From the NCBI GenBank assembly GCA_963717525.1, contig OY970343.1, positions 1,280,001-1,344,000 of the forward strand: a DNA stretch of 64,000 nucleotides, in the 5' to 3' direction. The stretch's first letter is position 1. The number at the start of each line of letters is the position of its first letter. Positions 11,859 to 41,000 of the stretch are shown piece by piece. This DNA comes from an uncultured Methanoregulaceae archaeon (GTDB lineage Archaea > Halobacteriota > Methanomicrobia > Methanomicrobiales > Methanospirillaceae). The notes beneath the pieces were generated by a model. The model searched no databases. It was not told the DNA's origin and saw only the letters and a program-made list of their open reading frames with translations. Position numbers and translations under genes: made by a program.

Positions 11859-11872
11859 CAAGGGGAAGGCTC

Positions 11873-12880: not shown

Positions 12881-13261
12881 AATTATCGTGTCGTAGTGGT
12901 GAAGGGATGAAGGTTGTGGATACGGGGTGGATACCGAAAAAGTCTGGTACGCCCGGAACTGCTCCAGGAGATTGCCTCCCGACTTTCGATGGTAGGTACT
13001 CACACAGGCGTTCGTTCCAGTGGAAATAAAGGGGTATAAAAATATTTTCAATTTGTCGGATTGGCTTAAAAATCCTCAAAAGGATATGAAATCTAAAATG
13101 CGGTGCGATAAAAGGAAATTTTGATGAGTTCTCTTTATCTAAAACACTTATACCACTATAATGAAGATTGGTGCGACGAAGTCCATGAGAAACACTGCGC
13201 TCACTACCTAATTAACACCTCGAACACCTTGCTATATCAACAAAACCAAAAATCCCCCTTT

Positions 13262-13815
13262 TTACAGGATGTTTTCGAGCTTCTGTTCGAGGACGTCAAG
13301 TCCCTTCTTGACGGCTTCAAGATTTTTGCCACCGGTGAGAATAGCTTTCCTGAAGAGAAGATTAACACAACGATCTTGGGATCTTTGATCCGGTATACAA
13401 GCCCGGGGAACTGTTCGGGTTCGTACTCGATATTTTCGACATTGAATGTGACGACTACCTTGTTGAGATTGATGGATTTACCGAGATCGTAGGAACAGAC
13501 CATATTGGTGATCGCAACTTTGGGCACTTTGAGGGTTTCAAAACCCGCCTCATTTAACGATTTGATGAGGGCAGCAAGTCCGTCTGTAAGCGCCTTATTG
13601 CTACGAAGGCCGGTCAGCACTATCTTGCCCGTCGAAAAAATCAGGGATGTAATCCTAGGTTCATCGATACGATATACTGCGCCGGGAAACCGTTTCTTAT
13701 TGAGTTCGCAGTTCTTGACCTTATTTGACAACTCAACAAGATCTATCGAATCGGCGATGACGCCCGACGCAACGATATTCTCAATCTTCAAGGATTCATA
13801 TCTTTTATCAGCCAT
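13262..13815 (-). CDS. tbp: TATA-box binding protein, frameshifted at ~13343
   Basis: IENIVASG, FPGAVYRI, LIFSTGKIVLTG, EYEPEQFPGLVYR; adding one base restores GKLILTGGKNLEAVKKGL..ENIL* with stop at 13262. Confidence 0.93.
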
Positions 13816-13933
13816 CTCTTCCTTCTATGACGTTCTTTGAAGCATAAGACTAATGGACAATCTTTATGACACTGAAAAAACCCGGCAAAGATCCACAAGA
13901 AATTATTTCAGGGCCCTTGGAGGATTAAGGATT

Positions 13934-14962
13934 ATGGAAAACAAGGCCCCCGTAAGATTGTCCCACCCCGGTGATCGCGAAATCACGTGAACGATCACGC
14001 TTGAAGAGCACTATGCCAGCCCGGCATTCCTGGACGGCCCGGGACGAAACCTCAGGGAACAGCCCGGGATGACCGGGCGTTTCGGGTATGGGAACCCTGC
14101 CGAAGATTTGTTGGATCTCGGTGAGAAGAGAATCGCTGAAATGGATGCCGCAGGTATCGACGTGCAGGTATTGTCGCTGACCGACCCCTCCGTGCAGCAA
14201 CTTGATGCGGACGCGGCCGTAGATCTGGCCCGTGAAGCGAACGACTATCTTGCGGACGCGGTCAGGCTATATCCGCAGCGGTTCGCGGGATTTGCCACGC
14301 TCCCAACTGCTGCTCCCGACATTGCTGCCGATGAGCTGGAGCGCATGGTCAAAGAACATGGCTTCAAAGGAGGATGGATCAATGGACACACCCGGGGCTG
14401 CTACCTCGATGACAAATTCTTCTGGCCTATCTTAGAGCGTGCTGATGCGCTCAAAGTTCCCCTCTGCATTCATCCGACACCCCCACCGGCGCCGGTGATT
14501 GAAACGTACTATTCGGGCTTCTCACCAGAGGTAACATTCGGCTTATCCCGGCACGGGTGGGGCTGGCATATCGAGACTGCGGTCCATGTCCTCCGTCTCA
14601 TCCTCGGTGGAGCGTTCGACCGGTTCCCGGATCTCCAGATTGTTATCGGCCACTTGGGAGAGGCTCTTCCCTTTATGATGCCCCGGCTCGACAAAGGTCT
14701 GTCCACGAACGTAACGAAGCTTGAGCATCCTGTGGCAGACTACCTCCGGGAGAATGTGTACTATTCGTTCAGTGGTTTCAACTTTACCCAGACCTTCCTC
14801 AACCTGTATCTTCAGGTCGGGGCCGACCGGATCATGTTCTCTGCCGACTACCCGTATAGTTCCATGGCGGAAGCACGCACCTTCCTCGAAAACCTCCCGG
14901 TGAGCCGTGCGGATAAGAACAGGATAGCGCACGGAAACGCGGAACGCCTCCTGCGGCTCTGA
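13934..14962 (+). pseudogene. Amidohydrolase_2 family (aromatic acid decarboxylase-like) with in-frame TGA at 13988
   Basis: ITLEEHY motif lies upstream of the annotated ORF start and directly after an in-frame TGA; IHPT, GHLGE, FSADYPY. Confidence 0.75.
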
Positions 14963-15072
14963 TACCTTCCCGAAGAGTACGTAAAAAGAGGTGGTTTTCC
15001 TTTTGGGAAAGTCCGGGAGGAACAGGCATTCCGCCAATGATGCACTTCCTGCCGGCAAAACCGGAATCTTTT

Positions 15073-15486
15073 TTAGCGCTTCCAGATTTCCAGGCTCGAC
15101 ATATTCTTCCCGTGATACGCAATCTCGCCTGCGGTAAACACGATCACGACAAAATCCGGATTCTCCGGCGTTTTGAAGTGCTGTTCGAGCATCGGGTTCC
15201 AGTACTTCTTTTTCGTTGCAATATCTTCGTGGACTTTGCCCTTTGCCTTGATCTCGACATACGGGTCGGAATATTCCTTTCCCGACCAGATGGCAAGAGC
15301 CGTGTCAGGGTTTTTCTTCAGCTGTTCGACCTTTTTCGAGGATTTCATCGTCGCCCCGACGAGGGTCATGTCAGGTAAGCCGGCAAGCACCATGAACCGG
15401 ACTGCCGGGAGCTTACCGTCCAGTGTTGCAACCGCTGCAACATGAGGACCATTGATAACTTCCATGATCTGCTCTTTGAGTGGCAT
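15073..15486 (-). CDS. Pyridoxamine 5'-phosphate oxidase-like / general stress protein 26 family
   Basis: VATLDGKLPAVRFM, T.KSSKKVEQLKKNP, YVEIKAKG, KYWNP. Confidence 0.85.
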   Translation of the reverse strand: MPLKEQIMEVINGPHVAAVATLDGKLPAVRFMVLAGLPDMTLVGATMKSSKKVEQLKKNPDTALAIWSGKEYSDPYVEIKAKGKVHEDIATKKKYWNPMLEQHFKTPENPDFVVIVFTAGEIAYHGKNMSSLEIWKR

Positions 15487-15720
15487 GGAAGCCATTCTCA
15501 TCCATGATCGTATAAATGTACGGATTGGGGAAATTGAGATACGGTCTATCATGGCCAGTCTCATACCAAACCGGTTGCGATATGATTAGGCACTGACGCG
15601 TCTGCGTGACGTTTGAATAGTCAACGTTAATGGGGTCACGCCATTATCGTTTTTCCATAAGCCCATTAACGCAACAGCAACCGCAGATGCAACAGAATCA
15701 TCGATACTTATATATCAAAT

Positions 15721-18005: not shown

Positions 18006-18178
18006 GTTTATACCATAACTTAAGGAAATAGGATAGGATAATTGAGCGGTCGGTGACCGATATTTCACCGCATTAAAAATTCCTTGCCCCGTTAATTTAT
18101 CACAACCAGCAATTCACACACCCGACAGGGGCACATACCTTAGATTGAGAGAAAACAAGAAGAATGGAGGAAAAATCA

Positions 18179-19632
18179 ATGCCAGAAGTCTGTATAGGAT
18201 TTGAAGTGCACCAGCCATACCGGCTGAACCGGCACTTTTCGCCTAATCCAAAGAAGAAGAATAAAGATCAGTATGACTATATTTCGATGAGTTGAATCGG
18301 GAAGTGCTGGAACGGGTATCTGAAAAGTGTTACGTGCCGGCCACGAAGATCATTCTGGAAAAACTGGACGAAGGGTTTCATTGTTCATTTTCCTTTTCCG
18401 GGACGCTTATCGAGCAGCTGGAGAAGTGGCAACCGGATGTCCTGGCTCTCTTTGACCAGGTTGCCCGTCACCGGAATTCCGAGTTGCTCGGGCAGACTTA
18501 CTACCACAGCATTGCCGGCTGCTTTGGTGACAAATCGGAATTTATCGAGCAAGCTGGGATGCATACCGACCTGATGTATGACCTTTTCAAGATCCGACCC
18601 ACAGTCTTTGAAAATACCGAGTTCACGTTCAATAACCAGATCGCCAGTTGTGTAAAAGATATGGGCTATGCTGGCATATTCACCGAGGGTGTGGAACGGA
18701 TACTCGACTGGCGCAGCCCGCACCATATCTACACCTGTAATGATTTGCCCGTTCTGCTCCGCGATTTTCAGCTTTCCGATGATATCGCGTTCCGGTTTGG
18801 CAACCAGGGCTGGAACAAGTACCCGCTGACTGCGGATACCTATGCTGACTGGATTCGCGGCACATCCGGGGATCTCGTCAATCTCTTTCTGGATTATGAG
18901 ACTTTCGGGGAACACTTCTGGAAAGAGACCGGGATCCTTAATTTCCTCTCCTACCTTCCCACAGAGCTGGAGAAACGGGGAATCCGGACTACCCTGCCCA
19001 CGGAAGCACTGGAGAGTTACCCTCCGGTTGGTACGATCGATGTCAAGGATACCATCTCTTGGGCTGATATCGAGAAGGACGCGTCCGCATGGATGGGCAA
19101 CGAGCGGCAGCACACGGCATACTCCGCGATCCAGAAAGCGGCGGCCTTTGCAAAGGACAAAGAAATCTGGCGGTATCTCCAGACAAGCGACCATTTCTAT
19201 TATATGGCCTCCAAGTACGGGACCTCTGGCGAAGTACACAACTACTTCAGCCATCACGAAGCCGAGGATGCGTTCCGGACGTACATGGCGATCCTTGCCG
19301 ATTTTGAGGAACGTAACATACGGGCGGCGAAGAACAAAAAATCGGCAAAGACCCTCCGGACACTGACACCGGAAGAGGCGTTTCACTTTGCATCTCCCTC
19401 CGGCCATGTCGGGTATGCAGCATACAGTCTCGACCAGTTCTGTGACCTGCTCCGGGTGGTACCCGCCGACTCGATAACGTACCACCAGGAACGGGGGGAT
19501 ATCGCCCACTGGATTGAACATACGCTTTTCGACCAGAAACTGGCCGCGGACGTTACCGGCCTCATGGACCGTCAGGAACTGATCACCCTGATCGATGAGC
19601 GGAGGCAACTGTTATGGAGTCGATTACAGTAG
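18179..19632 (+). CDS. Glycoside hydrolase family 57 (alpha-amylase-like) with C-terminal extra domain, frameshifted at ~18277
   Basis: MPEVCIGFEVHQPYRL at ATG 18179 after GGAGG; QTYYHS, NTE, SDDIAFRF, DYETFGEH, LQTSDHFYYM. Confidence 0.9.
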
Positions 19633-19651
19633 CGTTCTTCTGCGAGAGATC

Positions 19652-21926: not shown

Positions 21927-22235
21927 GATTATGATTGCCGTTCTCGATGTTAATGATAAATTGATTTCTGTGGCGTTAACAGGACTTAATGAATACTTAA
22001 TATCGTCGTAACTCATCAATGTTGACAATATAATTGTCTCGAAGTCGCACCAGAACCTGTCACATGATTTCGGGATGGGATGGTGCTGTTGCGTTTAAGG
22101 TTGGTGACAAATAGTTTACCTCGTTAAAATATTCAAATCAACCGCCAGTGCAACAGCACCCATGTAACGAACCAAAACTGTATATATCCTCTTGGGCGAT
22201 TACCAACTATCGAATGTCGATGGAGTGAATGAGAT

Positions 22236-24198
22236 ATGGCACAAGAAGAACCAAAGCCGGTGCTGGTCCGGGAACGGCTTGATGTCTGCGAGCTGGACCG
22301 GGCCCGGATGTCCCTGATGAACCCTGCACTCATTGAGCAGAAGAAACAGGAGCGTACGATCGACGAGAATGCAAAGCCCCTCCTCGAGATGGCGATGAAA
22401 GAGGGCCTCGAGACAGTCTGGGACCGGCACGAGATGCAGCAGCCACCCTGTAAGTACTGCGAGGCGGGGACCTCCTGCATGAGATGTACGATGGGGCCGT
22501 GCCGGATTATCCCGCCCCACCGCATCCGCGGCGTCTGCGGAGCTGATGTCGACCTTATCGTCGCCCGCAACCTGCTTGACACGATCGCGACCGGTTCGGC
22601 GGCCCATTCCGATCACGGCCGTGACATCGTCGAGACGCTGTATCTCGTAGGGATGGGAAAGGCCAAAGACTACGGCATCGCCGATCCGGACAAACTGCGT
22701 GTGCTCGCAAAAGAGTACGGCATCGAACTCGAAAGCAAAAGCAATGAGAAACTTGCCGCCGAACTCGGCCGCGCCATGCTCGAAGAGTACGGCATGGTGA
22801 AAAACACCCTCCAACTTCTCAACCGGGCTCCGAAAGCGACCCGGGAGATCTGGGACAAACTCGGGATCTCCCCGAGGGGGATCGACCGCGAGGTGGTGGA
22901 TTGTATGCACCGGATCCAGATGGGAGTCGGTGCGGATTATGTCAACATCCTGCTGCAGGGCCTGCGCTGCAGCCTCTCGGACGGCTGGGGAGGGTCGATG
23001 CTTGGCACCGATGTCTCGGATGTCCTCTTCGGGACGCCGACCATTAAGGAATCGAAGGTGAACCTTGCGGTACTTAAGGCTGACCACGTCAACATTGCTG
23101 TCCACGGCCACAACCCGGTCCTCTCCGAGATGGTGGTAAAAGCAGTCTCTGATCCCGAACTCGTGGCGCTTGCAAAGAAGAACGGCGCAAAAGGCATCAA
23201 CCTGGTCGGGCTCTGCTGCACGGGCAGTGAGCTTCTGATGAGAAAGGGCATCCCGATGTCCGGCAACCACTTCAACCAGGAACTGGTCATCATGACCGGG
23301 GCGCTCGAGGCGATGATCGTTGATTACCAGTGCATCTTCCCCTCGCTGCCGAGGACCGCCAGCTGCTTCCACACACTGATCATCTCGACCAGTGCCAAGG
23401 CAAAAATACCGGGATCGTACTACTTCGATTTCAGCGCGGACAAGGGTCTTGTGACCGCAAAGGCAATCGTCAGGATGGCTGTCGAGAACTTCAAGAACCG
23501 CAACCACATGCGGGTGTTGATCCCGGGTAAGCCAGTTCCACTCATGTCAGGATTCTCTAACGAAGCAATCAAAAAGGCGCTGGGTGGGTCATTCAAACCC
23601 CTTATCGATGTCATCGCTGCCGGTAAGATCAGAGGTGCAGTCGGTATTGTCGGGTGCAACAACCCGCACGTGAAACATGACTATGGCCATGTGACCCTGT
23701 CAAAGGCACTGATTAAAAAGAACATCCTCTGTGTCGAGACCGGGTGTGCAGCGATCGCCTCGGGAAAGGCCGGGCTTCTCATGCCGTCTGCCGCCGCCCT
23801 TGCGGGCGACGATCTGCGGGCAGTCTGCGAATCGTTAAAGATCCCGCCCGTGCTCCACATGGGTTCCTGCGTGGACAACTCCCGTATCCTCGTGCTCGCG
23901 GCCGAACTGGGCAATGCGCTCAACGTCCCGATCCACAAGCTGCCCATCGCCGGCGCAGCACCGGAATGGTCACTCGCAGAAGGCGGTCTCGATCGGCACC
24001 TACTTCGTTGCGTCGGGCGTTTATACCGTGCTCGGCGTGATGCCGCATATCTCCGGCAGCCCGGCCGTGGTCTCGCTCCTGACCGACGGCCTCAAGGGTG
24101 CGGTGAACGCAAACTTTGCCGTTGAGCCCGACCCGGTCAAGGCGGCCATGCTGATCGAGAACCATATCGAAAAGAAGCGTGTCGAGCTCGGGATATGA
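22236..24198 (+). CDS. cooS: Anaerobic Ni,Fe CO dehydrogenase catalytic subunit, frameshifted at ~23971
   Basis: B-cluster CMRCTMGPC..GVCG; C-cluster ligands in HGHNP, GLCCTG, DYQC, VGCNN, TGCA, GSCVDN; removing one C restores PEWYSQKA. Confidence 0.93.
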
Positions 24199-25081
24199 GC
24201 AGATATGGAGAGCCACGCGGTGCACCGGTAGCCGGCAACGGCAATTTTTTCTCTGAAGGCAAGAATGGAATACGGATCGTAATTACTGGGAAAGGCGGGG
24301 TCGGCAAGACCACCATCACCGCCCTTCTCGCCCACCTGTTTGCACAGCAAGGGTTCCGTGTGCTTGCCATAGACGGCGATCCCCAGCAGAATCTCGCGGT
24401 TACCTTGGGCATCCCGCCACCGGTGGCAGAGCTAATTGTCCCGGTCTCCAAAAGTGTGGAGTACCTGCGCGAAAAGACCGGCGCGGCCCGGACATCTCCC
24501 CGGGCGGGCTTCTTACCCTCAATCCGGATGTGAGTGACGTGGTTGACCGGTTCTCCATTCCTGTGGTGGATAACCTGCGGCTCCTTGTCATGGGAGGGAT
24601 CAGGCAGGCCGGTTCTGGCTGCCTCTGCCCCGAGTATACTCTTCTTACCGCAATCCTCCGGCATATGCATACCCTCAAAGACGAAGTGATTCTTCTGGAT
24701 ACTCCGGCGGGTCTTGAGCATTTTGGCAGAGCGGTCGCGGACGGGTTTTCCTGCGCAGTTATAATGGCAGATCCTACCTATAATGCCCTTTCTGTAGCAC
24801 GGGAATCTGCTGCGCTGGCGCGACAACTGGGAATCGGGCATATCATTCTTGTCGTGAATCGTGTTGGCAAACCGGAGGAACGAGACAAAGCACGTGAACG
24901 GGCAGGACGTCTCGACGAATTCTCCCGGGTGATGCTGCTTTCCTTTGATCCTGGCGTAATCGCTGCGGAACCTGAAATATGCCCACTCCTTTCGACCGAA
25001 TCGGATTTCATGCGTGAAATCAAATCCTTGGTAGTAACCATTACCCATCCTTCCGAAGTCCGCTCGCCAGATTTCTCGTGA
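24195..25081 (+). CDS. cooC: CO dehydrogenase nickel-insertion ATPase CooC, frameshifted at ~24486
   Basis: GKGGVGKTT, IDGDPQQNL, GSGCLCPE, LDTPAGLEHFGR. Confidence 0.9.
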
Positions 25082-25259
25082 GGGTACCACCTCAGGTTCT
25101 GTTGCGTTGGCGATTGATCGGTATTATGCCGAGGTGAAAAACCGATTGCAGACCCGGAACCCTGATTTCCCCCAATCGTGGAATGGCTGGCCAACATGTG
25201 GTATGCACTATCGTACCTATACAAACCTATAATTCCCCTTTCTCCTCTTAAACTCCCGT

Positions 25260-25865
25260 ATGCTAAAGATAATCGGGATTCTAGGGAGCCCGCTTCCTGA
25301 CGGCAATACAGCTCTGTTGCTCGATAAGGCCCTTGAGGGAGCAAAGGCAGCTGGTTGTGAAGTCGAGCTTATCGATGTAATTACTCTAGATATCCAGAGC
25401 TGTCAGGAGATTTATTATTGCAAGGATCATAACACCTGCATCTTAAATGATGATATGATCCCGATCTATCCGAAGGTTGCGGCACTGGACAGCCTGATCC
25501 TCGCCACACCTATCATGACAATGGGTATCCCGGGGCATCTCAAGTCGTTCATCGACCGGTTCCAGGTCTTTTATATGGCCAAATACTTCCGGAACGAGCC
25601 GCTTGTCTCTCCGGATCTGAAAAAGAGAAGAAAGAGCCTCTTCATCAGCATTTCCGGGATGGATATCCCCGGGGTGTTCAATGGAGCAAAACAGACGATA
25701 AAGGCGTTTTTTGACATTATTGATAGCCCCTACCATGACGAACTCCTCATCAGCGGTATGGATCAGATCAAAGACATAACGACGCGGCCGGATCTCCTCA
25801 ATAATGCTTATGCGAAGGGATTTGCCCTTGGGGCGTCGTTAATGGAATCGAGGCAGCCCGACTAA
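25260..25865 (+). CDS. Flavodoxin-like / NADPH-dependent FMN reductase
   Basis: GILGSP..GNTA.LL, CQEIYYC..C..DDM, LATPI. Confidence 0.85.
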   Translation: MLKIIGILGSPLPDGNTALLLDKALEGAKAAGCEVELIDVITLDIQSCQEIYYCKDHNTCILNDDMIPIYPKVAALDSLILATPIMTMGIPGHLKSFIDRFQVFYMAKYFRNEPLVSPDLKKRRKSLFISISGMDIPGVFNGAKQTIKAFFDIIDSPYHDELLISGMDQIKDITTRPDLLNNAYAKGFALGASLMESRQPD

Positions 25866-25882
25866 TCCGCCATTGTTACGAG

Positions 25883-26023
25883 GGTCCCATCATATTCCTC
25901 ACTGCATATCTAAATAAAGAAAAAATTGATGAGGCAAAGAGTATTTCACCCTCTGACTTTCTTAACAAGCCGTATCTGGAACATGATCTCCTTGCGGTAG
26001 TTGAGAAAGCATTTTTCAGGTAG
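25883..26023 (+). pseudogene. C-terminal half of a receiver domain
   Basis: Manual translation PIIFLTAY..IDEAKSISPSDFLNKPY..DL..VEKAF*, no start or N-terminal half. Confidence 0.7.
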
Positions 26024-26223
26024 TTCTTCATTATGGCAATATTCTATCGATTCCTCCCCGGTTTTCTCACTACGATTTTCCGGAACCGAAAAACCTTGAA
26101 TTTTGTATTTTACATCGTTCCTTTAATAGCAATTAAATGAAACAGAAAAATTTTTTCGCTTTATATCAATAAAATATGGATTTTATTAATGCCGAATGTC
26201 GAATCTTCAGTGTTTTTAGGAGT

Positions 26224-26695: not shown

Positions 26696-26922
26696 GTACC
26701 GTCTCCCAGGTTCTGGTACGTTTTCGAGACTCGTTAAATACTGGGCTGGTGTTGAATTCGATGGAGTTATTTTCTTGAGTCACGATAACGCACCAGAACC
26801 GGTGAGGGTCGGCTTGGCGGACAAAAGAAAGGGGGACTCTTCCCCGATTCTTCACTAAAACAGCGCCGCCCGTATCTCGATTCTGTAAGAAAAAGGTTGA
26901 AGGGGTGCTGGGGGGTGGGGAT

Positions 26923-31870: not shown

Positions 31871-32330
31871 TTCTGCCGGCTGAAAAAAATAAGGCTCTGG
31901 TTTTTTAGCGTTAGCGAAAACAAAAAATACCATGATCGCGCCAGAATCGCTATCCGGCGGGGTGGTAAAAAGTCACGACAACGCGGAAGGCCTAAGCCTG
32001 TGAACGCGAATGATCCCCTGCGATATCGCACCGACGATCCATCCGTTCGATCCGGTTTCCCGGTTTCGTTTCCGGCCAATCTGGAACCCCTCTGTTTTCT
32101 AGGCTTCCTTTAGGATTCCCGTTTATTTTCCCGTTTATTTCGTTTTATACGAGTAAAAGGAAAGGAAAAAGTTGCAACATTTTCTAAGTGAAAAACCGGA
32201 AAATCCGGATCCGGGATCCGGACCGGACCCGGATCGCCGGACCGCCGGATCACAAAAAATATTGCCGCACACAACGAAAATAAAATCAGCAGAAAAATTA
32301 AAAGGACTATCAGGAGGGGAATGAGAAATT

Positions 32331-32840
32331 ATGGATCCTAAAGAACAATTTTTACCGTTCTTTCTCTGGGATGGCGATGAAAATCCCACAACGTTAATAG
32401 AGAATATTCTCCCGCTAGCATCGAAATTCTCAAACGCTCCTGAAAAGAAATTAAAAGAAATGATTTCAACAGAGGTGTTGACCGTCGTCAAGAGGAAATA
32501 TGCAAATTTTGAATTCGAGACAACATTCGATGAGAATGGAATTTTTCATTTGAAACGCGATAATTACGATTGTTTGCCCACGTTGTCGACAGGAGACCGG
32601 ATTGTTCTTTGGCTGTCTCTTCTGGCTGGATTAAGAAAATCTACAAAATGTCAGCTGCCGCTCATCCTGGACAGTCCATTTTCCCATCTCGATATTTTGC
32701 ACAGAACTTCTCTCATAGACTTCCTCAAGGATACCCTACAGGGTGAGCAGGTAATCTGCATCGGCTCTGAATTGGAATTCGAGTCAGTGATGGATATCTT
32801 AACGCCTATCACAAACAGCCATTATCGTCTGGGAAATTAA
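32331..32840 (+). CDS. Isolated C-terminal half of an SMC/Rad50/DndD-like ABC ATPase
   Basis: Signature LSTGD, Walker B/D-loop LPLILDSPFSHLD..HR, QVI; no Walker A. Confidence 0.7.
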   Translation: MDPKEQFLPFFLWDGDENPTTLIENILPLASKFSNAPEKKLKEMISTEVLTVVKRKYANFEFETTFDENGIFHLKRDNYDCLPTLSTGDRIVLWLSLLAGLRKSTKCQLPLILDSPFSHLDILHRTSLIDFLKDTLQGEQVICIGSELEFESVMDILTPITNSHYRLGN

Positions 32841-32898
32841 TGAGTTGCCTCTCTCTAAAAGGCCTCACTAATCATAGTGCGTTTTTCAGAAATATATG

Positions 32899-34434
32899 TT
32901 ATCTCATATTGATTCGGATAGTGTTTTCCTGCATCTCAAGCAAGGGATTATCGAATTTCAATACTTCTTCTGCCCATTCGTTAATATCGTCAAATGTCGA
33001 AGTTAGGCTGATTGCCCCCAGGTTACATTGTATGAGGATTTTCGTAAAATTTTCTGTAGATATCTCTGTTAATCCTTCAATATTTTTTAAAACGGGATAA
33101 TACCTTGAATCAAGACGATTCAAAGTATCCAGCGGGAATTGTAGATCATATCCTTGATTTTGGTTAACCGCAGGTTTTTCTGTCAGCTGAGAACTGGTTA
33201 ATTCGGTTTCATCAGAAGAAACACCATCTTTCGAACCGAGTATTGTATCCATTTTGTCTTTGTTTTTATTGTGTTTTATCCGTTTTTCTTCGATCTCTAC
33301 CAAATTTAACGAAATATAAGTTGGATCAGGATGTAATGTCTCTTCGCTCTCTTGAGTGATGGAGAAATCAATATCCTTTATTGAGGATGCTGTATTGTCA
33401 GGCCCAACACTCGGGAATTTAACGAGAGATTCACCCGTGAGAGAACGATCATTATCCGGTTCTTGATCCGTTGTTGTATCAACAAAGGGAATAGATATTT
33501 GATTTGGTAAATTATCTTTATCGAAATCGTCGTTATTCTGAACGGACTCTTGATCTTTGAGAGGTTTTACGTCTTCAAAAAAATCGTCCAATTTTTTTAG
33601 AGACTTTGCGGCATCACTGTAATCAATAAGATCAGAATCTTGTATCTGCTCATTAGGAATTGATTCATCTTGTAACGGAATGCTCTCTCCACGGTTTGAA
33701 GGACCTGATTTTATTATTAGGACTGGATGCGGCCGAACCAATGTTCTCGCTACTTCTTCCGGTGTTGTTTTCATTGCTGAAACAGAACGATTTGTAGGAG
33801 TTTCATAAGGTATTTTTGAGGATACATTCTGTTCTTTTTTGATGAGCACGTTTGGTACGACGTTCACCCTTGTGAAAGGTGGGTTCGATGGCTTTTCTGT
33901 AGGCTCTGATTGTGTGGACTTCCGGTTGTCGATAGTTTTTTGTTGGTTTTGAGTGTCGATCAATACGGGTGAAATTTCATTTTTTATTTTTGCACCGCAA
34001 TGAGGACAATATTTTGCAGTGTCGTCAGTAATCAGCATGTAACATTTTGAACACCGAATTGGGTTTTCACTTCTAATTGTTTTTTTATAAGCGGAATGCA
34101 TACGGGCACTAATAATAAGAAAATAAATGAATGAGATCAGGGTGAGTATGCCAAAAAAACTGAATATGCATTTTATCAAGCATAACTGATAATTTATATT
34201 TCTTGGATCTTTTCTTTCATAATTGAGGAAAATGCCGTCCAAAATCAGATTTATCAACAAAATGAGTCCTAATAACATCGCAATAGGACTATGATAATTT
34301 GGAGAATCAATCTCAAAAAATAAAGAGAGAAACGCCAATCCAAATAAACCGGATATAACGATATCCAATCCGATAACGCAGTGGAAAATTATCGAATACC
34401 TGAAAGATAGATACTGGGTTTTGGCCCCATCCAT
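32899..34434 (-). CDS. Membrane protein with zinc ribbon, acidic disordered linker and C-terminal TerB-C-like domain
   Basis: Three N-terminal TM segments; CSKC..YCPHCG; C-terminal FDDINEWAEEVL..DNPLLE. Confidence 0.6.
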   Translation of the reverse strand: MDGAKTQYLSFRYSIIFHCVIGLDIVISGLFGLAFLSLFFEIDSPNYHSPIAMLLGLILLINLILDGIFLNYERKDPRNINYQLCLIKCIFSFFGILTLISFIYFLIISARMHSAYKKTIRSENPIRCSKCYMLITDDTAKYCPHCGAKIKNEISPVLIDTQNQQKTIDNRKSTQSEPTEKPSNPPFTRVNVVPNVLIKKEQNVSSKIPYETPTNRSVSAMKTTPEEVARTLVRPHPVLIIKSGPSNRGESIPLQDESIPNEQIQDSDLIDYSDAAKSLKKLDDFFEDVKPLKDQESVQNNDDFDKDNLPNQISIPFVDTTTDQEPDNDRSLTGESLVKFPSVGPDNTASSIKDIDFSITQESEETLHPDPTYISLNLVEIEEKRIKHNKNKDKMDTILGSKDGVSSDETELTSSQLTEKPAVNQNQGYDLQFPLDTLNRLDSRYYPVLKNIEGLTEISTENFTKILIQCNLGAISLTSTFDDINEWAEEVLKFDNPLLEMQENTIRINMR

Positions 34435-34623
34435 GTTGAAGAATATATTGTGGGGGGACGTTATATTTTCCCTAGGTCTGATATCGATCTAACAATGATG
34501 AAAATACGGCAAATTGTTTTTGAAAAACGCTCAAAATCCGGATTTTTGTAAGAAGGGTCAGGCCGGGATCCGGATCGAAAATTCAGATGTGAGTCTGGAA
34601 TGAGTGTGAGGAGTAATAGGCGT

Positions 34624-35225
34624 TTATATCCCGCGCCTCTTCCGGGCTCGATAGAGGGTCATTACAGGGACATTGAAATGCTGTGCGATGTCTTCCCAGT
34701 TATCCCCCGCTGCTCTCATCTGTTCAACCACTGCAAAGTCTATATCCGCGCGGGGACGGCCAAGAGTCTTTCCCTCATCACGCGCGCGGTCCAGTCCCAA
34801 TTTTGTTCTCTCGACAAGGTTATCCCGCTCCCGCTGTGCAACCCAGGAGAGGACCATTAAGAGGAGCTGCCGGATGTTCTTATCTTCCGAGTGAGTAAAG
34901 GCCTCGTTTGGTGACAGACTCCATACAAGAACGCCAAGACCTTCGATCTCCTCTATGATGTTGATAGTCTCCAGAGTCGTACGGCCGAGGCGGGAGATCT
35001 CATACACATAGAGGTATTTTACCGTCTCCCTGTGCTCTTGGATAAATGATAACAGACGGGAAAAGGCGGGTCTCTCATGGGGCTTCTTGGTCCCGGAGAC
35101 ACCCTTGTCTATAAAGATACAGTCCCGCACCACACCGGCTTTGATAGCTCCCGGCACTGGTTATCCGGGTCCTGTTCCATCGTTGAAACCCGGACATATC
35201 CAACTTTCTCACATTTGAATGACAT
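34624..35225 (-). CDS. Serine recombinase (resolvase/invertase), frameshifted at ~35146
   Basis: Manual translation from ATG 35225: KVGYVRVSTMEQ..NQ; then DKGVSG..RPAF, ISRLGR, ER..GL..AR..G..LGRP, C-terminal HTH. Confidence 0.92.
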
Positions 35226-35250
35226 AACAATAACCTATTAACTTAATTGC

Positions 35251-35280
35251 ATATAACAATATCGTTCTTTTTTGTTATAT
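35251..35280. promoter_or_regulatory. Inverted repeat upstream of resolvase (candidate res subsite)
   Basis: ATATAACAA-N12-TTGTTATAT; extra ATAACAAT half-site at 35224. Confidence 0.5.
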
Positions 35281-35536
35281 CTCCCCTTAGCAGTACATTA
35301 GAATTTATTACGAAATATTTTGTTTTGAGATAAATTATTCAAGAAAATTTTCATAATTGTGTGTACGTAAGGGTAGGCCAGCACCTCGGTGGGGAGCCTC
35401 CCTTGCCCACATAGTTTAGACACTAATATAAAAATATTCTGTTTTGTTCGCGGTCAATCCACTACATGAAAGGTTAGTAATGCGTGACGGTTCGTAAAGT
35501 TAGAAAATGAATCTACTCTGACCTTGTAAGATATTG

Positions 35537-36016
35537 TTACCCGGATAAATTACTTTTTATCACTTTCTTAAATTCTTCTAACTTCATTGTCTCTGGTTTA
35601 GAAAAACCCGCGTCTTGTAATTTTGATGGAATCCGGTACTTAATCAGGTTCTTATCTGAAGTTAAAAAATAGTTATCAGAATATGCAATTGCATAAGCCA
35701 GATGTGTCCGATCTGTGGGTTCACGAATCATCCGTGTATCAATCTCATCTTCTCCCATCTGAAAGCAGAGGATACGCACACCATCATTAGGAAAATGAAC
35801 CGCGATGTTCCAATCATCAAGGAAGCCGTTTAATGCAAAAATATAATCCATTCCGTTTTCTTTTTCGTGCATCTGGGTAAACGCTTCACCCAAAACCGAA
35901 ATCGATGTACAAATATTATAACCAGCGTTTAACGCATGTTCCAAAGTTGTTTTTAGCTGCGGTTTCTCAAAACACTGAAAAAAAATAGGTGTATCTAAAA
36001 AGAGGGAGTGATTCAT
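35537..36016 (-). CDS. PIN-domain (VapC-like) ribonuclease toxin
   Basis: LFLDT, SVLGE, DRTHLAYA, FLTSDKNL. Confidence 0.8.
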   Translation of the reverse strand: MNHSLFLDTPIFFQCFEKPQLKTTLEHALNAGYNICTSISVLGEAFTQMHEKENGMDYIFALNGFLDDWNIAVHFPNDGVRILCFQMGEDEIDTRMIREPTDRTHLAYAIAYSDNYFLTSDKNLIKYRIPSKLQDAGFSKPETMKLEEFKKVIKSNLSG

Positions 36017-36171
36017 GCGAGGATCGCTTTAAGACGTTTCATCATAGCACGGTATTCATCTTCACCAATGGCAGATGATATCTTTCCCTTGGTCACCGAG
36101 CCCCCATAGGGAAGCATCCCACGTTGGTAAGGTTTACCAATTACTTCATCCGGATTGAACTTTTTAGTCAT
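36013..36171 (-). CDS. 52-aa putative antitoxin
   Basis: GGAGG RBS before MTKKFNPDEVIGKPY; its stop overlaps the PIN start (ATGA). Confidence 0.6.
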   Translation of the reverse strand: MTKKFNPDEVIGKPYQRGMLPYGGSVTKGKISSAIGEDEYRAMMKRLKAILA

Positions 36172-36348
36172 ATCCAGCCTCCACCCTTCGTTCTGAATAT
36201 CATGTATGCACATACATGATATTAAATCCTCACATGTTTCATGACACATTTCGTTCCATAGCGTCGATGAAAACTTGATATCATTATACTATCTCTTTCG
36301 TTTTTAAGCTTAGAAAAGTATCTATTCAGAGGATTAATGATCCTGGTT

Positions 36349-36486
36349 TCAAAGTCCCCTCAAAGCCACGGGTAACACTCAAAGTACTCCCACTTTTTAG
36401 AGATATACCTCTCGTATATATTTTGTATTTGTTCTTTTATTTTCTATTAGACTGATTTGAGAAAAAAAAGGAGGAGTACTTGGAGT
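36349..36486. other. Putative replication origin of the element
   Basis: 22-bp imperfect IR (36377-36398 / 36465-36486) around an AT-rich core, three TCAAAG direct repeats, directly 3' of the helicase gene. Confidence 0.55.
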
Positions 36487-36498
36487 CAGAAAAGAATG

Positions 36499-38232
36499 TT
36501 AAATCAGGCTTTCCGGCTCTGGTTTTACCTCGTTGAAATTTCCATTCCAAGAGTAAGGGCCCTGGTAAACGGGGATGTTGCACTTCCTGTCACCAATTCG
36601 TAAAGAGGTCTTAGTAGGGGTGAGCTTGTATGCTTGCAGGTCCCGGGTAAATTTGTTTAGTGAGGGCATCCTTTTTCTCGGATCTATATGTTCGAGATCA
36701 CAAAACTTTTGGTACTGTTCAAAGAATTTCTTACGGTCGAACATGCAGATGTCGGATGCCCTAGCATTCTCTGTCATCTTATCTTTGATGAACTGGCAGA
36801 GCGGATCCGCTGCCATGCTCCAACGTTCCATCACCCCTTCCGCATCCCTGTTTATGGTAAGCTTACCCTTTTTCCTGATGGATCCGATTGCCTCGATTAC
36901 GAGGTTCAGGAAGCTCGTGTACATCTGATTAGTGAACATCCGGGCCGTGAAGGTATCATCTACTTCGTAAGAGTATGGAAAACGGACATACTCCCATCGT
37001 TCCCAAAATGCAGGGTCATACTTCACGTCATCGGGATATTTCGGCGGATGATTACAGGTGAATACGTGCGGACAGGTTATAGTACCCTTGTAGGACTGTC
37101 GGCCCTTCCGTTCGATATTATGACGGCAGGACCCGGTAAACGTTTTGAACTTCCCCACATTTTTCAGCGGTATCTCCGAGAGGTCATCGTAGATATTGAG
37201 TATCTTACCTTCGAGGTCCCCGGCCACAAAACGATCTTCGCATATTGATTGGAGAGAGCGGGCGGATATTTGATCATTCCCGAAAAACCCGGTTAAAAAC
37301 TCAATGTACGTACTCTTGCCGGCGTTTGGTTCGCCTTGGGCGATATAGTTCTTCTTGTAAGTCGTCTGGAGCTGTGCCTGGAGGATTGCCTGTGCTGCGA
37401 TCTGAATCAAGAGCGGAACATCTTCGGGCTCTACCCACGAAAGCAGAAGGTTCCGAGCCGCATCTCCCTTGATACTGGCGTCATAGGTAACGGGAATACG
37501 ATAGGTGAATAGGTGCTGCGGTCCAGGCGGCAGGAGTTTGCCGGCTCTGGTCTTATCATCGAGTTTCAGGATACCATTTTCTAACGGGATAAGATCCTTT
37601 ACCTGATTAAATGGGTACTCGCACTGGGGATTTGTGGCAAGAAGATAAGCGAGGATATCCCGGATGTCTCGTGTGATACTACACTTTGCCCCGGTCACTT
37701 CAATGATGATGCGGATCGCCTGCTCCAAATCTCCCGCATTTTCCCGATAAATGCCGCTTTCTTTGTCGTAAACAAAGAGTGTTTTGTTAAAGCTCATCGT
37801 GTTAAATTGCTCGTGCAGGTGTATTGCTATCGCTGGATGCTCAAGTACGACCGTGCCCCTACTGCTTGTCCTGGTGAAACTGTCTAAAAGTGCGTGCTGC
37901 CGCTGTGCCTCCCGGTCCCGCTGCATGATCTCATATCGCTCGCGGACCTTCGGATCTTGTGCTGCCTGAGTAAGAGTCTCTCGGAGGGTATCCGTGTTCA
38001 TCAAGTCGAACCCTTTTGGCAGGCGCTGGAGTTTATCAAGTGCGGCGCATAGTGCCGGGTGGTCCATGCTGGCGATCTTCGCATCAGGATAATCTGGGTG
38101 CTGCCATACTGCCGGGGCTGGTGCCAGTTGCTCGGCTGCGGGTTCTGAGATGGATCGGTTCATGGTGGCGATCAGAAATTCTTGGGTCTTTGCGTCTACG
38201 AGTGCTGCCCTGGTTGGTACGGTTTCAATCAA
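36499..38232 (-). CDS. P4/D5-family superfamily 3 helicase (Rep)
   Basis: D5_N-like LIPLENGIL..FTYRIPVTYD; Walker A GEPNAGKST; Walker B NIYDDL; FTCN; C-terminal wHTH-like region. Confidence 0.9.
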   Translation of the reverse strand: MIETVPTRAALVDAKTQEFLIATMNRSISEPAAEQLAPAPAVWQHPDYPDAKIASMDHPALCAALDKLQRLPKGFDLMNTDTLRETLTQAAQDPKVRERYEIMQRDREAQRQHALLDSFTRTSSRGTVVLEHPAIAIHLHEQFNTMSFNKTLFVYDKESGIYRENAGDLEQAIRIIIEVTGAKCSITRDIRDILAYLLATNPQCEYPFNQVKDLIPLENGILKLDDKTRAGKLLPPGPQHLFTYRIPVTYDASIKGDAARNLLLSWVEPEDVPLLIQIAAQAILQAQLQTTYKKNYIAQGEPNAGKSTYIEFLTGFFGNDQISARSLQSICEDRFVAGDLEGKILNIYDDLSEIPLKNVGKFKTFTGSCRHNIERKGRQSYKGTITCPHVFTCNHPPKYPDDVKYDPAFWERWEYVRFPYSYEVDDTFTARMFTNQMYTSFLNLVIEAIGSIRKKGKLTINRDAEGVMERWSMAADPLCQFIKDKMTENARASDICMFDRKKFFEQYQKFCDLEHIDPRKRMPSLNKFTRDLQAYKLTPTKTSLRIGDRKCNIPVYQGPYSWNGNFNEVKPEPESLI

Positions 38233-38250
38233 TCCAGCGCACCCCCACCT

Positions 38251-38430
38251 TTATCCCTCATTAAAATTGTCTATCAGTCTCCATCTGCCATCTTTGAGAC
38301 ATGCGACAGCAACCAGATAATGAAGTGGGCTGGTTGCTTTCAGGTGCTCCAGAGTCTCCTGGTCGATGGTGAAGCCCGGGATGGGCCGGGGTTGCGGCAA
38401 GGTTGAAGTACCGGAACAAAGAGAGCTCAT
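38251..38430 (-). CDS. 59-aa hypothetical protein not in the ORF track
   Basis: MSSLCSG..FTIDQETLEHLKATSPLHYLVAVACLKDGRWRLIDNFNEG*; ATGA overlap with the upstream gene; ends 18 bp before rep. Confidence 0.6.
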   Translation of the reverse strand: MSSLCSGTSTLPQPRPIPGFTIDQETLEHLKATSPLHYLVAVACLKDGRWRLIDNFNEG

Positions 38431-38660
38431 ACGTCCACCTGCTTGTCAGTGCTGGATAGGGATGTCGGGGCCTTGGTGTTGGTAGCATTATCGGCCCCTG
38501 CATTGCCTTCTTTCATTTTCCTTTCAAGTGCCAAGCGTAATTCCTTCGATAACGAAATTTCCTGTTCTTTTGCGAAATCTCGAAGATGACGAGGTATGGT
38601 CACATTTGTATGAATTAATTCCTCGCCATCTGATCGAATTGTCAGTGTTACCATTTTCAC
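38427..38660 (-). CDS. Small ribbon-helix-helix DNA-binding protein
   Basis: TNVTIPRHLRDFAKEQEISLSKELRLALE pattern. Confidence 0.75.
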   Translation of the reverse strand: MKMVTLTIRSDGEELIHTNVTIPRHLRDFAKEQEISLSKELRLALERKMKEGNAGADNATNTKAPTSLSSTDKQVDV

Positions 38661-38744
38661 TTCCTGTGGCGTGATTCACACCACAGTTATGTATATCGGT
38701 TCTGGGGTCAACATCCCTTTTAAATACAATTCAAATGTGACATT

Positions 38745-39440
38745 ATGCCTCCAACAAAAGGGCTTGCCGGAAGGAAAGCAAAATTTCTGGTAAAAAAAGG
38801 ACAATTGACTCCTCTCCGAGAATCAAAGCCTCTCAGAATAGAGCTTTATAAGATGTACCTTGAAGCACGGATTGGAAAAGGGAGAGAAGAGCTACCCACT
38901 ATTTTAAAATTCATAATTGAAAGAGGGAAAGAATCCCCAGATGGATGGGTTCCATATCCTGAAATTTTGACGCATATGAAAGAAGAGAAGTTTGACTTGT
39001 CTCGGTCTAGAATGAACCAAATCATGATAGATCTGGAAAAGCATAGGATTACAATCAGACAGAAGAGGAAAAACCTAGTTTTTTACAAAATTTCAGGAGA
39101 GGCATTGACTCCAGTTTTAACAGATTATGGAGTTAGAATAGAATATTTACGTCTAAAAAGGGCGAACAACGAACTCTCAAATAAACTAGTAATTGCAGAG
39201 TCTATCCTCAGTGAACACGATTTAATGGATAATTACGAATCTGAACTTCAAAGAATACATGATGAAAATGAGAGAAAGAAAGCGCGCCGGAGACGAATGA
39301 GCAAAGATGAAATTTTAAGGGATATTTTACAGTTAACTCCAGATGAAATGACTATTAGAAATAAATCTATTGAATCTAGTCAAGCGGTAATTCTGTTAGA
39401 TGATCTGAAAAAATTAAAACAGACTAAAAATGATAGTTAG
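38745..39440 (+). CDS. Putative winged-helix regulator with coiled coil, divergent from the rep operon
   Basis: ILKFI..EIL..LSRSRMNQIM.DLEK..I..FYKI. Confidence 0.6.
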   Translation: MPPTKGLAGRKAKFLVKKGQLTPLRESKPLRIELYKMYLEARIGKGREELPTILKFIIERGKESPDGWVPYPEILTHMKEEKFDLSRSRMNQIMIDLEKHRITIRQKRKNLVFYKISGEALTPVLTDYGVRIEYLRLKRANNELSNKLVIAESILSEHDLMDNYESELQRIHDENERKKARRRRMSKDEILRDILQLTPDEMTIRNKSIESSQAVILLDDLKKLKQTKNDS

Positions 39441-40681
39441 GCTTGATTTTTTGCCTGCACCTGTAAAAGTTCCATTTTAAACTTATCGAGTATGGCCTGA
39501 TATTCCGGCTGAAGTTCTGCCTGCTCTTTCGATTTTTTTACCTTATCCATTGCTTCTTCGGTTAGCTCAAGGCCACAATTTCCACAGAACGACAAGGTTG
39601 GACCATTGACTGTGAAACACCGGGGGCATTGTCGGGGTTCCAACGCTTCAGACTTCTTCTTTTTATCAGGTGCAATGACCCCATTCATACGGGCTATCTC
39701 ATTTTCGGTGTCAGTGTCGGTGAGATGGGCATACGTTGCAAATTGCTTTGTGATGATGTTGCCCCACATCATTTTCTTAATAATGCTCTCGCTGCATCCC
39801 TGTTGGATGAGATGAGTTATCCGCGAATGACGGAAGATATGTGGCGTTATATGCTTCTCTATTCCCGCTCTATGAGCTATCTTCGATAATTGTTTTGCTA
39901 CTCCCCGGTACTGGAGTGATTGATGCTTCCCGTTTGTCAAAAAAACAAACCCTTCATCGGTGATCTCACCGGGGTAATCGTTCTTCCATTGTGCAAGGTA
40001 TGACCGGGCCATGACAAGGGGGATAAAACGGGGCCTCTCCGTCTTGTCATTGACATTTATTACAACATTCCAGTCAGTAAATTTTACTTGTTTCCAGGTA
40101 AGTTTGCCGAGCTCGCCAACGCGGAATCCGCCTTCATACAGACAGGCAATTAGGGCACGGTCCCGGGATATCTGACATGCTTGAATCATTGCCTTGATCT
40201 GATCCTCGCTAAGGATCTGTTCAGCTGTCTTGGTCATAGTATCGTACCCGGGGGTATGAATTTTGGACAGTTTCTTTTCATCAATGGTCGAGTAGTGGTT
40301 CTCTACAAGCCACAGATGAAACCGTTTTAGAAAGCGGATAAAATCCCCTATAGTGTTTTTCTTGTACCGGAGTGAGCCATCAGGATTTTTTGCATTTTTA
40401 ATAGTATCTATAGCTGAATAGACATCAGATATGGTGTTTGTACGGTAAGGACCTACAAACTCCCTCAGTTGGGTGAGAACTACATGCAGTTTAAACGCCC
40501 GGCTGTTGCTGATCTGGGATATTGCTCTTGCTTCCGCGACAAATTCACGGATGAGCGCGGCGTCATCTTCCGTGATCATTCCACTCTTGATCTTTTTTTC
40601 AAGAGTGTTGTTCGAGTATTCCACGTACTTTGCATCACTAGCATGGAAACGTGATGTTTGGATGGTGCTGGTAGCTGCCAT
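39437..40681 (-). CDS. Tyrosine recombinase/integrase with C-terminal zinc ribbon
   Basis: RDRALI..LYEGGFRVGEL, DKT, PHIFRHSRIT, catalytic Tyr in ATYAH; CPRC..CGNC. Confidence 0.93.
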   Translation of the reverse strand: MAATSTIQTSRFHASDAKYVEYSNNTLEKKIKSGMITEDDAALIREFVAEARAISQISNSRAFKLHVVLTQLREFVGPYRTNTISDVYSAIDTIKNAKNPDGSLRYKKNTIGDFIRFLKRFHLWLVENHYSTIDEKKLSKIHTPGYDTMTKTAEQILSEDQIKAMIQACQISRDRALIACLYEGGFRVGELGKLTWKQVKFTDWNVVINVNDKTERPRFIPLVMARSYLAQWKNDYPGEITDEGFVFLTNGKHQSLQYRGVAKQLSKIAHRAGIEKHITPHIFRHSRITHLIQQGCSESIIKKMMWGNIITKQFATYAHLTDTDTENEIARMNGVIAPDKKKKSEALEPRQCPRCFTVNGPTLSFCGNCGLELTEEAMDKVKKSKEQAELQPEYQAILDKFKMELLQVQAKNQA

Positions 40682-41000
40682 AACAGTGAATCAGCATCAA
40701 AAGTATATAAAGAAACTGCTTGGAATGTAACCTTATATGTATGTGTCGGGCTGGGGCATGAAATCCTTATTTTGTATCCTGATTTTGATGTACGGGACAC
40801 TGTGCTCATATTTTCCAAGGTATTCCGGGGATGGAAACGTTGAGATTTGGTCCCCACTACAGGATTTTTTTCGGACGGGCATATTTTTATGCAAGGCGAC
40901 TACCCATGGATGGGGTGCCCGCTCTCCGGTGCATGATAAGCGATTCTTAAAATGTAAAAAAAAAGGAACTATCCATTAAAAGGATAAAATCCCCGGAACC

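Follow-up and report, generated by a model that had tools for sequence, protein, structure and literature searches.

The 64,000-nucleotide stretch analysed here (the window; G000:C1:1280001-1344000) belongs to the single-contig genome of a methanogenic archaeon (G000; 2.29 Mb, 87% complete; Methanoregula-like, judging by gene content and kinship) and contains the right two-thirds of a small mobile element, which is integrated into the 3' end of a tRNA-Phe gene. An unsplit copy was identified in another species, and comparison of the two sequences argues that the element moved between species very recently. According to our preferred reading, to which we assign a probability of roughly 0.5, the element excises, replicates, rides in the particles of tailed archaeal viruses and carries a Shango-type defence operon. 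An earlier note on the same DNA had described a small, site-specific integrative element without virion or conjugation genes and with a layout like that of phage-inducible chromosomal islands (PICIs). This description was supported; its estimate of about 9 kb has to be replaced by 12.2 kb for the native element. In the following, positions refer to the window, and coordinates marked "genome" are positions outside the window on G000:C1.

ARAGORN detected no tRNA in the window, Rfam gave no match at 30-42.5 kb, and the target was recognised only through relatives. The intact tRNA-Phe gene with attL is located at genome 1267133-1267208 (plus strand), 12.8 kb to the left of the window and 53.5 kb to the left of the attR core CGGGCTGGGGCAT (40747-40759, plus strand), which equals the 3' end of tRNA-Phe. 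On both strands of the 2.29-Mb genome, the last 13 nt of this gene occur only twice, the second occurrence being at 40747-40759. A 10-mer just after the tRNA-Phe gene (genome 1267218-1267227) represents the left arm site, and its exact inverse, GAATGTAACC (40723-40732, plus strand), the right one, both being predicted integrase sites of attP. Moreover, the DNA past 40759 aligned with the sequence downstream of tRNA-Phe in the empty-site relatives G015 and G020. Because of the 13-mer repeat, the inverted arms and this downstream match, both ends were assigned to one element despite their distance. When 14 loci of relatives were retrieved around the genes of the right flank (a gene of 169 aa, kef or one of its paralogues), 12 contained tRNA-Phe, in 8 cases no more than about 0.8 kb away from these genes. 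Similar inverted arms were observed in the elements of G369 and G348, those of G369 flanking its 13-bp core. The earlier note saw neither a tRNA target nor an att repeat and supposed that the target was atypical or eroded. Instead, a clean att of 13 bp was identified in tRNA-Phe, and the empty-site comparison suggested in the note served to define it. Nor is the element fixed across the genus: its helicase was found in 10 of 107 other genus genomes, and empty sites exist.

Between its two ends, the element is interrupted by a nested element of 41.4 kb (G000:C1:1271502-1312892, plus strand; window part 1-32892), which starts 8,498 bp to the left of the window. The insert (41,382 bp) lies between a sngA-like gene and sngB/sngC and is bounded by a 9-bp direct repeat, TTTCAGAAA, with its left copy at genome 1271502-1271510 and its right copy at 32884-32892 (plus strand). 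This repeat occurs 41 times in the genome and alone is not significant; it counts as a boundary because its single-copy form was seen in G113, L129, L130 and the reads. In detail, the empty site was present in these three and in the assembled contigs of X1, X10, X11 and X12, the four sequencing runs compared at the left end of the element, and run X1 contained both split and unsplit junctions. Several of the runs are possibly the source of G000 itself, X12 not being marked as such. Positions 31900-32883, which had been included in the element by the earlier note, were excluded, because they represent the right end of the intruder. Consequently, one of the two supposed cargo genes, encoding a 169-aa SMC/DndD-like C-terminal fragment (32331-32840, plus strand), is the last open reading frame (ORF) of the nested element, to which the window's DNA left of 32884 belongs. 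A dispersed non-coding repeat at 32048-32290, which recurs at genome 525793, at genome 1132837 and also in several congeners, was considered as the left end of the small element (~32050-32290) and rejected, since it sits inside the intruder's right end.

The unsplit element was located at tRNA-Phe in G113, the representative of a species different from that of G000 (G113:C1:1086887-1099069; 12,183 bp core to core). Both copies differ by one substitution and one inserted base, and these two differences are probably errors of G000, because the reads match G113. In contrast, the gene left of tRNA-Phe is 69-81% identical between the two genomes, and kef 76%; a very recent transfer is deduced from this discrepancy. 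In a contig of run X12, the element (one difference in 2,813 nt) was joined to a kef gene about 87% like that of G000. A DNA search of the 228 family genomes, to which all family-wide results refer, revealed a near-identical element in G000 and G113 only, among the matches listed. In run X10, contig depth was ~39-42 over the element versus 4-7 on G000-type flanks. Contig depth is not copy number, and replication is not claimed from it; since the element contig begins in tRNA sequence, the values fit integration in a more abundant other host. Single-base indels relative to the covering runs were noted at 29408, 31882 and 35145, suggesting long-read assembly errors in G000, because of which apparent frameshifts (esterase, resolvase and perhaps the nested recombinase) have to be read cautiously.

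The replication module consists of a D5-like superfamily 3 (SF3) helicase/initiator of 577 aa (36499-38232, minus strand; DUF5906, E 1e-16; D5_N) and a predicted replication origin. The Walker A and B motifs are retained in the helicase, and no primase domain was found in Pfam, as noticed before. Its only solved relative is PriRep5 (7OLA/7OM0) of SaPI5, a Staphylococcus aureus pathogenicity island (SaPI), with E 4e-8 for the single sequence and 4e-32 for the profile. Directly after the helicase stop, an inverted repeat, AAGTACTCC ... GGAGTACTT, surrounds an AT-rich spacer at 36377-36486. This region was identical with that of G084 at 80 of 122 positions, compared with 46 of 127 in the adjacent non-coding DNA. 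Ten relatives were checked at the same position: eight possess inverted repeats (weak ones in G008 and G034), and none was found in G006 and G369. The conserved repeat and the AT-rich spacer support the putative origin of the earlier note. As described in PMC9371898, SaPI origins lie just 3' of rep and comprise opposed iterons around an AT-rich core; the arrangement found here follows this plan and is predicted to function as an origin.

The G+C content of the element amounts to 38-50%, compared with 54.5% genome-wide. Its inward-facing tyrosine integrase (414 aa; 39437-40681, minus strand) matched Pfam Phage_integrase with E 7.7e-25, and the alignment confirmed the catalytic R, K, HxxR and Y as well as the CxxC..CxxC of a C-terminal Zn ribbon. 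Three paralogous integrases of the same family are encoded elsewhere in G000 (genome 56297-57463, 311678-312790 and 1437005-1438027), of which two adjoin tRNA-Thr and tRNA-Asp and one has internal stops. Divergently oriented, an ORF of 231 aa (38745-39440, plus strand) is weakly predicted to encode a regulator of the winged helix-turn-helix (wHTH) type: it had no family match in Pfam or PHROGs, Atlas gave weak ArsR-like wHTH leads (TM by query <0.4), and a 56% homologue occupies the same position in G032. A ribbon-helix-helix (RHH)-like regulator of 77 aa (38427-38660, minus strand; Pfam CcdA-like, E 7e-4; 44-77% homologues in relatives) and a conserved 59-aa ORF (38251-38430, minus strand), which has 49-88% identical homologues at the same position in relatives and is a candidate excision or regulatory factor, complete the series that ends with the helicase. 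A PIN-domain gene (35537-36016, minus strand; Pfam PIN, E 1.2e-4) and an overlapping, upstream 78-aa ORF (36013-36249, minus strand) are predicted to form a toxin-antitoxin pair, and the same pair adjoins a related integrase in G096. Furthermore, a small serine recombinase (resolvase; 34624-35226, minus strand) comprises about 200 aa if a one-base error is allowed for. Its N-terminal truncation in G000 is likely due to this assembly error near 35145, where all four runs possess an extra base; G113 encodes 200 aa with the full Resolvase domain. Integrase, divergent ORF, RHH / small ORF / helicase series, toxin-antitoxin pair and resolvase had all been listed in the earlier note and were recovered, the wHTH identity of the divergent ORF remaining weak.

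In agreement with that note, no capsid, terminase or type IV secretion system match was obtained among the element ORFs in Pfam and PHROGs, and neither was a relaxase or coupling protein. The latter result bears on the idea of an integrative mobilisable element that depends on a conjugative helper and hides an unrecognised origin of transfer (oriT) in a non-coding gap, e.g., 35230-35530. The precise att, the small size, the transfer between species and the unexplained AT-rich non-coding stretches within the element would agree with such a lifestyle. However, the VirB4 profile PF03135 gave no match in G000 or G113 (one profile only, which a divergent archaeal VirB4 may escape), and the relatives discussed below carry virus-packaging rather than conjugation genes. 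We therefore regard mobilisation by conjugation as unlikely.

The cargo is predicted to be a variant of Shango, an experimentally established defence system (as outlined in 10.1101/2022.05.11.491447), with anti-virus activity. It comprises canonical sngB (genome 1270192-1271487, minus strand; PADLOC SngB, E 3.8e-142) and sngC (genome 1268016-1270175, minus strand, beside tRNA-Phe; PADLOC SngC, E 3.1e-221), and a gene of 511 aa in the sngA position (32899-34434, minus strand; weak Pfam TerB_C). Thus, one of the "two cargo genes" of the earlier note turned out to be the first gene of a split operon. Its product features a predicted membrane N-terminus, a Zn ribbon, an acidic linker and a TerB_C-like tail, and lacks the TerB_N/TerB core of canonical SngA. 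Among 18 window proteins, this tail matched a hidden Markov model (HMM) of the genes upstream of sngB at 19 other loci with E 4.6e-13. PADLOC SngA gave no match for the protein or its two closest homologues, whereas five of five congener SngAs were recognised (E 1.8e-23 or better), and the alignment was restricted to the C-terminal ~80 aa. In the unsplit operon (G113, L128-L130), the gene is situated directly upstream of sngB, and the spacing of 29 nt is close to the 23-28 nt in six congeners. The operon accordingly shares with Shango the strong SngB and SngC matches behind an SngA-position gene at the usual distance; it differs in that this gene's product keeps the TerB_C-like tail alone, its N-terminus being swapped for a membrane and Zn-ribbon part. 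The contiguity of the three genes, kept in G113 and L128-L130, is broken by 41.4 kb in G000, where the operon is predicted to be disabled, sngB and sngC being cut off from sngA.

Relatives of the element strengthen its interpretation as a satellite, because many of them carry TerS/TerL or tape-measure-like genes and no capsid was detected. A related helicase was found in 24 of the 228 family genomes, and the TerL ATPase (TerL-N) query matched 33 of them; 20 stretches were fetched around 18 of these 33 matches. Most stretches contained a small block of integrase, small ORFs, primase/helicase, a TerS-like ORF and TerL in two genes, to which some add a tape-measure-like gene. Three TerL elements could be bounded by att, namely those of G369 (14.0 kb), G338 (12.4 kb) and G343 (9.7 kb), the G338 element using the same tRNA-Phe 3' end. 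Loci of about 8-14 kb with integrase, primase/helicase, TerS-like ORF, an often split TerL (ATPase and nuclease) and in some cases a tape-measure-like or neck gene comprise L168 (G369), L181 (G338) and L191 (G343) and, further, L180, L183, L184, L185, L188, L193, L195, L178-L179, L019 and L159. PHROGs recognised TerL, tape-measure proteins (five elements) and one neck protein in the relatives, and gave no capsid or portal match among 53 proteins and 83 of 128 listed ORFs, a scan that left out integrases, TerL halves and some shadow ORFs; control viruses yielded capsid and portal matches. A TerS-like ORF was closest to hypothetical proteins of Uroviricota (0.97-0.98). In midpoint-rooted FastTree phylogenies, which omit the integrase relatives of 52-61% identity, the integrase grouped with those of TerL-bearing G343, G008 and G369 (support 0.92), and the helicase was sister to that of tape-measure-bearing G084 (1.0), followed by TerL-bearing G340 (0.92). 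The compact layout recurs across several genera with different integrases. Homologous blocks always lying within larger proviruses or integrative and conjugative elements (ICEs), an outcome considered in the earlier note, were not what was found, the relatives being mostly small att-bounded elements. Small tRNA-adjacent islands with a related SF3 helicase and no integrase detected nearby (L018, L164, L167 and L169) were also observed; two of them possess 28-30-bp att repeats and defence genes, and the islands are possible non-autonomous members.

The same relatives could suggest that the element is the inert remnant of a head-tailed provirus, which lost its virion module and gained host defence genes. 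TerS/TerL and tape-measure-like genes are kept in the relatives, and NitKor-E1, a similar TerS+TerL element, is interpreted as a relic in the account given in PMC6563490. Ragged decay is contradicted by the intact att, arms and ORFs, by the near-identity of the copies in the two species (two differences over 12,183 bp) and by the compact layout repeated across genera. For this element, the recent interspecies transfer largely refutes the remnant explanation, which we consider very improbable.

Candidate helpers are TerL relatives in IMG/VR and a provirus of G113. A search of IMG/VR with the TerL of G369 gave 237 relatives, of which 80 were kept, and several of 11 inspected contained full virus-like gene blocks. 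A head-tailed provirus portal was detected in 9 of the 228 family genomes. G113 itself harbours a head-tailed provirus (G113:C1:2069255-2108000; L293-L295) with integrase, TerS, TerL, portal and adaptor; no major capsid match was obtained in PHROGs, and its integrase belongs to the same broad family as that of the element. A crude k-mer scan of G000 revealed no CRISPR array, and the family-wide DNA search gave no spacer-like matches among those listed, two candidates per genome being scored, which does not amount to a spacer test.

Several observations weigh against a satellite carried by virus particles. In Pfam and PHROGs, no TerS, capsid-modifying or other interference gene was found in the element. 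Regarding circles, which the earlier note had proposed to look for, no attP junction appeared in the contigs of the four runs at the left end, contigs dropping rare forms, and the element contigs in X10, X11 and X12 start inside the tRNA. In line with its suggestion of a virome search, IMG/VR was scanned with three queries, namely helicase, integrase and the tape-measure-like gene of G084, none of which gave a locus. G000, at 87% completeness, gave no match for TerL (PF03237), portal (PF04860) or VirB4 (PF03135). The provirus of G113 is interrupted by a low-GC gene block and has no DNA in common with the element beyond matches of 16-21 nt. The closest integrase relatives (52-61%) showed no TerL in the fetched stretches and carry Gabija, Druantia, OLD or nearby restriction-modification/Shedu systems, like an ordinary defence island. 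Since PHROGs gave nothing for the large ORF after TerL in the control virus L199, a portal or capsid of divergent sequence might have been overlooked in the relatives. Finally, defence is not assured, because the canonical SngA core is absent.

An integrated cryptic plasmid or defence island, i.e., an analogue of cargo-type tycheposons, therefore stays a strong alternative, given the lack of packaging or interference genes and of an attP circle, and a host without detected terminase or portal. Such an element would spread helper-free by membrane vesicles, natural transformation and occasional generalised transduction, in a family that swaps packaging and defence modules and from whose satellite life this lineage would have departed. 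The PIN pair and the resolvase can be regarded as plasmid-maintenance genes, the nearest integrase, RHH and 59-aa relatives bear defence cargo and show no TerL, and viral contigs in IMG/VR gave no matches. Moreover, in the part of 10.1101/2020.12.28.424599 concerned, cargo tycheposons were not detected in the phage fraction, and tycheposon hallmark genes were enriched in vesicles. On the other hand, tape-measure-like or terminase genes accompany the helicases most closely related to that of the element, its origin and layout resemble those of PICIs, and the intact jump of 12 kb between hosts ~77% alike in the flanks fits protected packaging, if not uniquely. On balance, we rate the helper-free explanation as a possibility to be taken seriously, at well under even odds.

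For the preferred reading of a helper-dependent satellite, anatomy and recent mobility are observed, and the following steps from excision to packaging are a proposal. The element would excise with its own integrase at the 13-bp core, giving a circle of 12,170 bp, and the SF3 helicase would initiate replication at the SaPI-like origin with the help of a host primase. The PIN pair and the resolvase may stabilise the element. The packaging machinery of a helper would then move it in tailed-virus particles; transfer by a helper virus appears to us about an even bet. Because no TerS is encoded, the copy would depend on a signal that the helper recognises or on being present in many copies. In the new host, the variant SngA-SngB-SngC would protect against viruses. 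As the composite of element and intruder measures 53.5 kb, the intruder would first need to leave for small-genome packaging to become possible.

In a wider and more tentative reading, which in our opinion falls somewhat short of an even chance, the element would belong to a so far undescribed family of satellites, PICI-like and dependent on head-tailed viruses of methanogens, which is characterised by a tRNA-targeting integrase, an RHH switch, the helicase, a SaPI-like origin and an exchangeable late module. In part of the members, this late module would consist of TerS, split TerL and a tape-measure-like protein as a packaging kit without a capsid; in the others, it would be cargo directed against viruses (Shango variant, Gabija, Druantia). 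The member analysed here would be a defence type now moving between species, parasitised by a 35-41-kb cargo transposon with a tyrosine recombinase that disables its defence operon.

The nested element deserves a description of its own. The gene at its head (genome 1271596-1272935) encodes a second tyrosine recombinase and contains two 1-nt insertions relative to an intact 445-aa copy at genome 153295-154632. Its cargo includes chemotaxis/signalling genes, a TATA-binding protein (TBP), a CO dehydrogenase-family gene, GH57, SIR2-STAND and esterases. A scan of 31 of its 39 ORFs at E 1e-8 revealed no transfer gene (VirB4, relaxase or coupling protein), three further ORFs being covered by separate scans. 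The low-GC gene at 6763-9966 encodes 1067 aa with SIR2 and a STAND NTPase and is likely a stand-alone defence gene. Blocks at 11666-15644, 18166-19643 and 22171-26142 are 82-97% identical to other parts of the chromosome and include an extra TBP and CO dehydrogenase-family gene. A second nested element of 34.4 kb (G000:C1:120361-154726) has its own 9-bp repeat, TTTCAAAAA. Both elements have in common a 2.4-kb left end with the recombinase (99.2% identical), and their right ends, where the SMC/DndD-like fragment recurs with 89% identity, are nearly the same; they differ in most of their cargo and are both located away from tRNAs. In addition, a right end of this type stands alone at genome ~510800, and a third related recombinase is encoded at genome 1101572. 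Of 108 genomes of the genus, 29 contain relatives of the recombinase; for the one in G130, which is 79% identical, no right end was found nearby. By analogy, the pair is reminiscent of Starships, i.e., giant transposons with cargo that are headed by a tyrosine recombinase. Several families of ~80-bp palindromes ending in GGTTCTG...CAGAACC are dispersed in G000 and cluster in flexible regions, including 6634-6719, 10016-10101, 21968-22057, 22082-22160 and 26707-26800, and one pair brackets the SIR2-STAND gene. Their ends resemble IS6-family inverted repeats, and they are possibly miniature inverted-repeat transposable elements (MITEs) helping to gather cargo; integron attC sites were rejected, as the order of the GTT/AAC boxes does not agree with the attC layout.

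Compared with known systems, the element does not qualify as a head-tailed provirus, as no capsid, portal or TerL gene was detected, and VirB4, relaxase and coupling protein, which mark ICEs and integrative mobilisable elements, were found neither in it nor among 31 nested proteins at E 1e-8. The SNJ2-type integrase family is described as restricted to Halobacteria in the relevant part of PMC8371274, and the 13-bp att at the tRNA 3' end is SNJ2-like in length only. Integrase plus prim-pol/helicase elements of Methanomicrobia (Mpal_2033/arCOG07809) share small size, the lack of a capsid, integration and the host group; as presented in PMC4158269, they are proposed integrated satellites and encode a helicase of superfamily I as well as fusellovirus-like ORFs. 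The archaeal satellites pSSVx, pSSVi, SRCEs and NMV2S likewise possess a plasmid-like replicon thought to borrow virus particles (10.1101/2025.02.15.638363 and 10.64898/2026.08.12.739948, in the portions on these elements). According to the same portions, the viruses parasitised by pSSVx, pSSVi and SRCEs are spindle-shaped, and NMV2S forms a circle of 3.8 kb. None of these satellites is integrated in a tRNA gene of a methanogen.

In the first of these two preprints (2025), the archaeal satellites comprised pSSVx, pSSVi and, as a proposal, the SRCEs, which all exploit spindle-shaped viruses; the second (2026) added one small Asgard circle. If true, a PICI-like family on head-tailed methanogen viruses would extend satellite biology to the methane producers of peat, soil and sediment. 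Read cautiously, the finding is a rare and clear example of a defence element of 12 kb that crossed a species boundary unchanged. Our literature search found no description of its family or of the nested element, which supplementary provirus tables could list. The exact att, the empty site, split and unsplit alleles and the nested intruder make excision, transfer route and defence directly testable, and the integrase-att and helicase-origin pairs are candidate genetic tools for Methanoregula-like methanogens.

Archaeal cryptic integrated elements such as NitKor-E1 share the integrase, a short att, an SF3-helicase replicon, a toxin-antitoxin pair and the absence of capsid and conjugation genes, as far as detailed in PMC6563490. 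Under this loose definition, which asks for an integrase with an att site in the absence of virion and conjugation genes, the element belongs to them. NitKor-E1 carries TerS and TerL without other viral genes (PMC6563490, same account), like the sister elements described above. It is a single case, whereas TerL-N matched 33 of 228 family genomes here, mostly small elements where inspected, and one member of the family moved recently.

With PICIs and SaPIs, the element has in common a size of ~10-12 kb, an integrase with att at one end, divergent regulators, an SF3 helicase homologous to PriRep5, an inverted-repeat/AT-rich origin after the helicase, defence cargo and no virion genes. It differs in its archaeal host and in the RHH and weak wHTH-like regulators at the position concerned, homologues of AlpA, MerR or Stl giving no match in Pfam or PHROGs. 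Of the primase-replicase module, the PriRep5-homologous helicase and an origin-like repeat are present, no primase domain being detected. TerS and a capsid-morphogenesis gene are lacking in the element, with TerS-like ORFs in relatives; these also carry TerL and tape-measure-like genes, which are typically absent from PICIs, tail genes being "forbidden" in the PICI model of SatelliteFinder as given in PMC10085698. Thus, the element works like a PICI or a tycheposon and falls outside the PICIs on TerS, capsid morphogenesis and regulator homology.

The tycheposons of Prochlorococcus (10.1101/2020.12.28.424599, in the part on their architecture) show the same targeting of tRNA genes, an inward tyrosine integrase, a small replication module and a small serine recombinase. 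The layout of an inward site-specific integrase at a tRNA gene, a small replication module and cargo was found in the element as well. Unlike the packaging types of tycheposons, those of its family are not confined to TerS or capsid genes but contain TerL and tape-measure-like ones, and the systems belong to different domains of life, with defence as cargo here versus nutrient uptake. Common to both is a family divided into packaging-gene and cargo types that are linked by their integration and replication genes.

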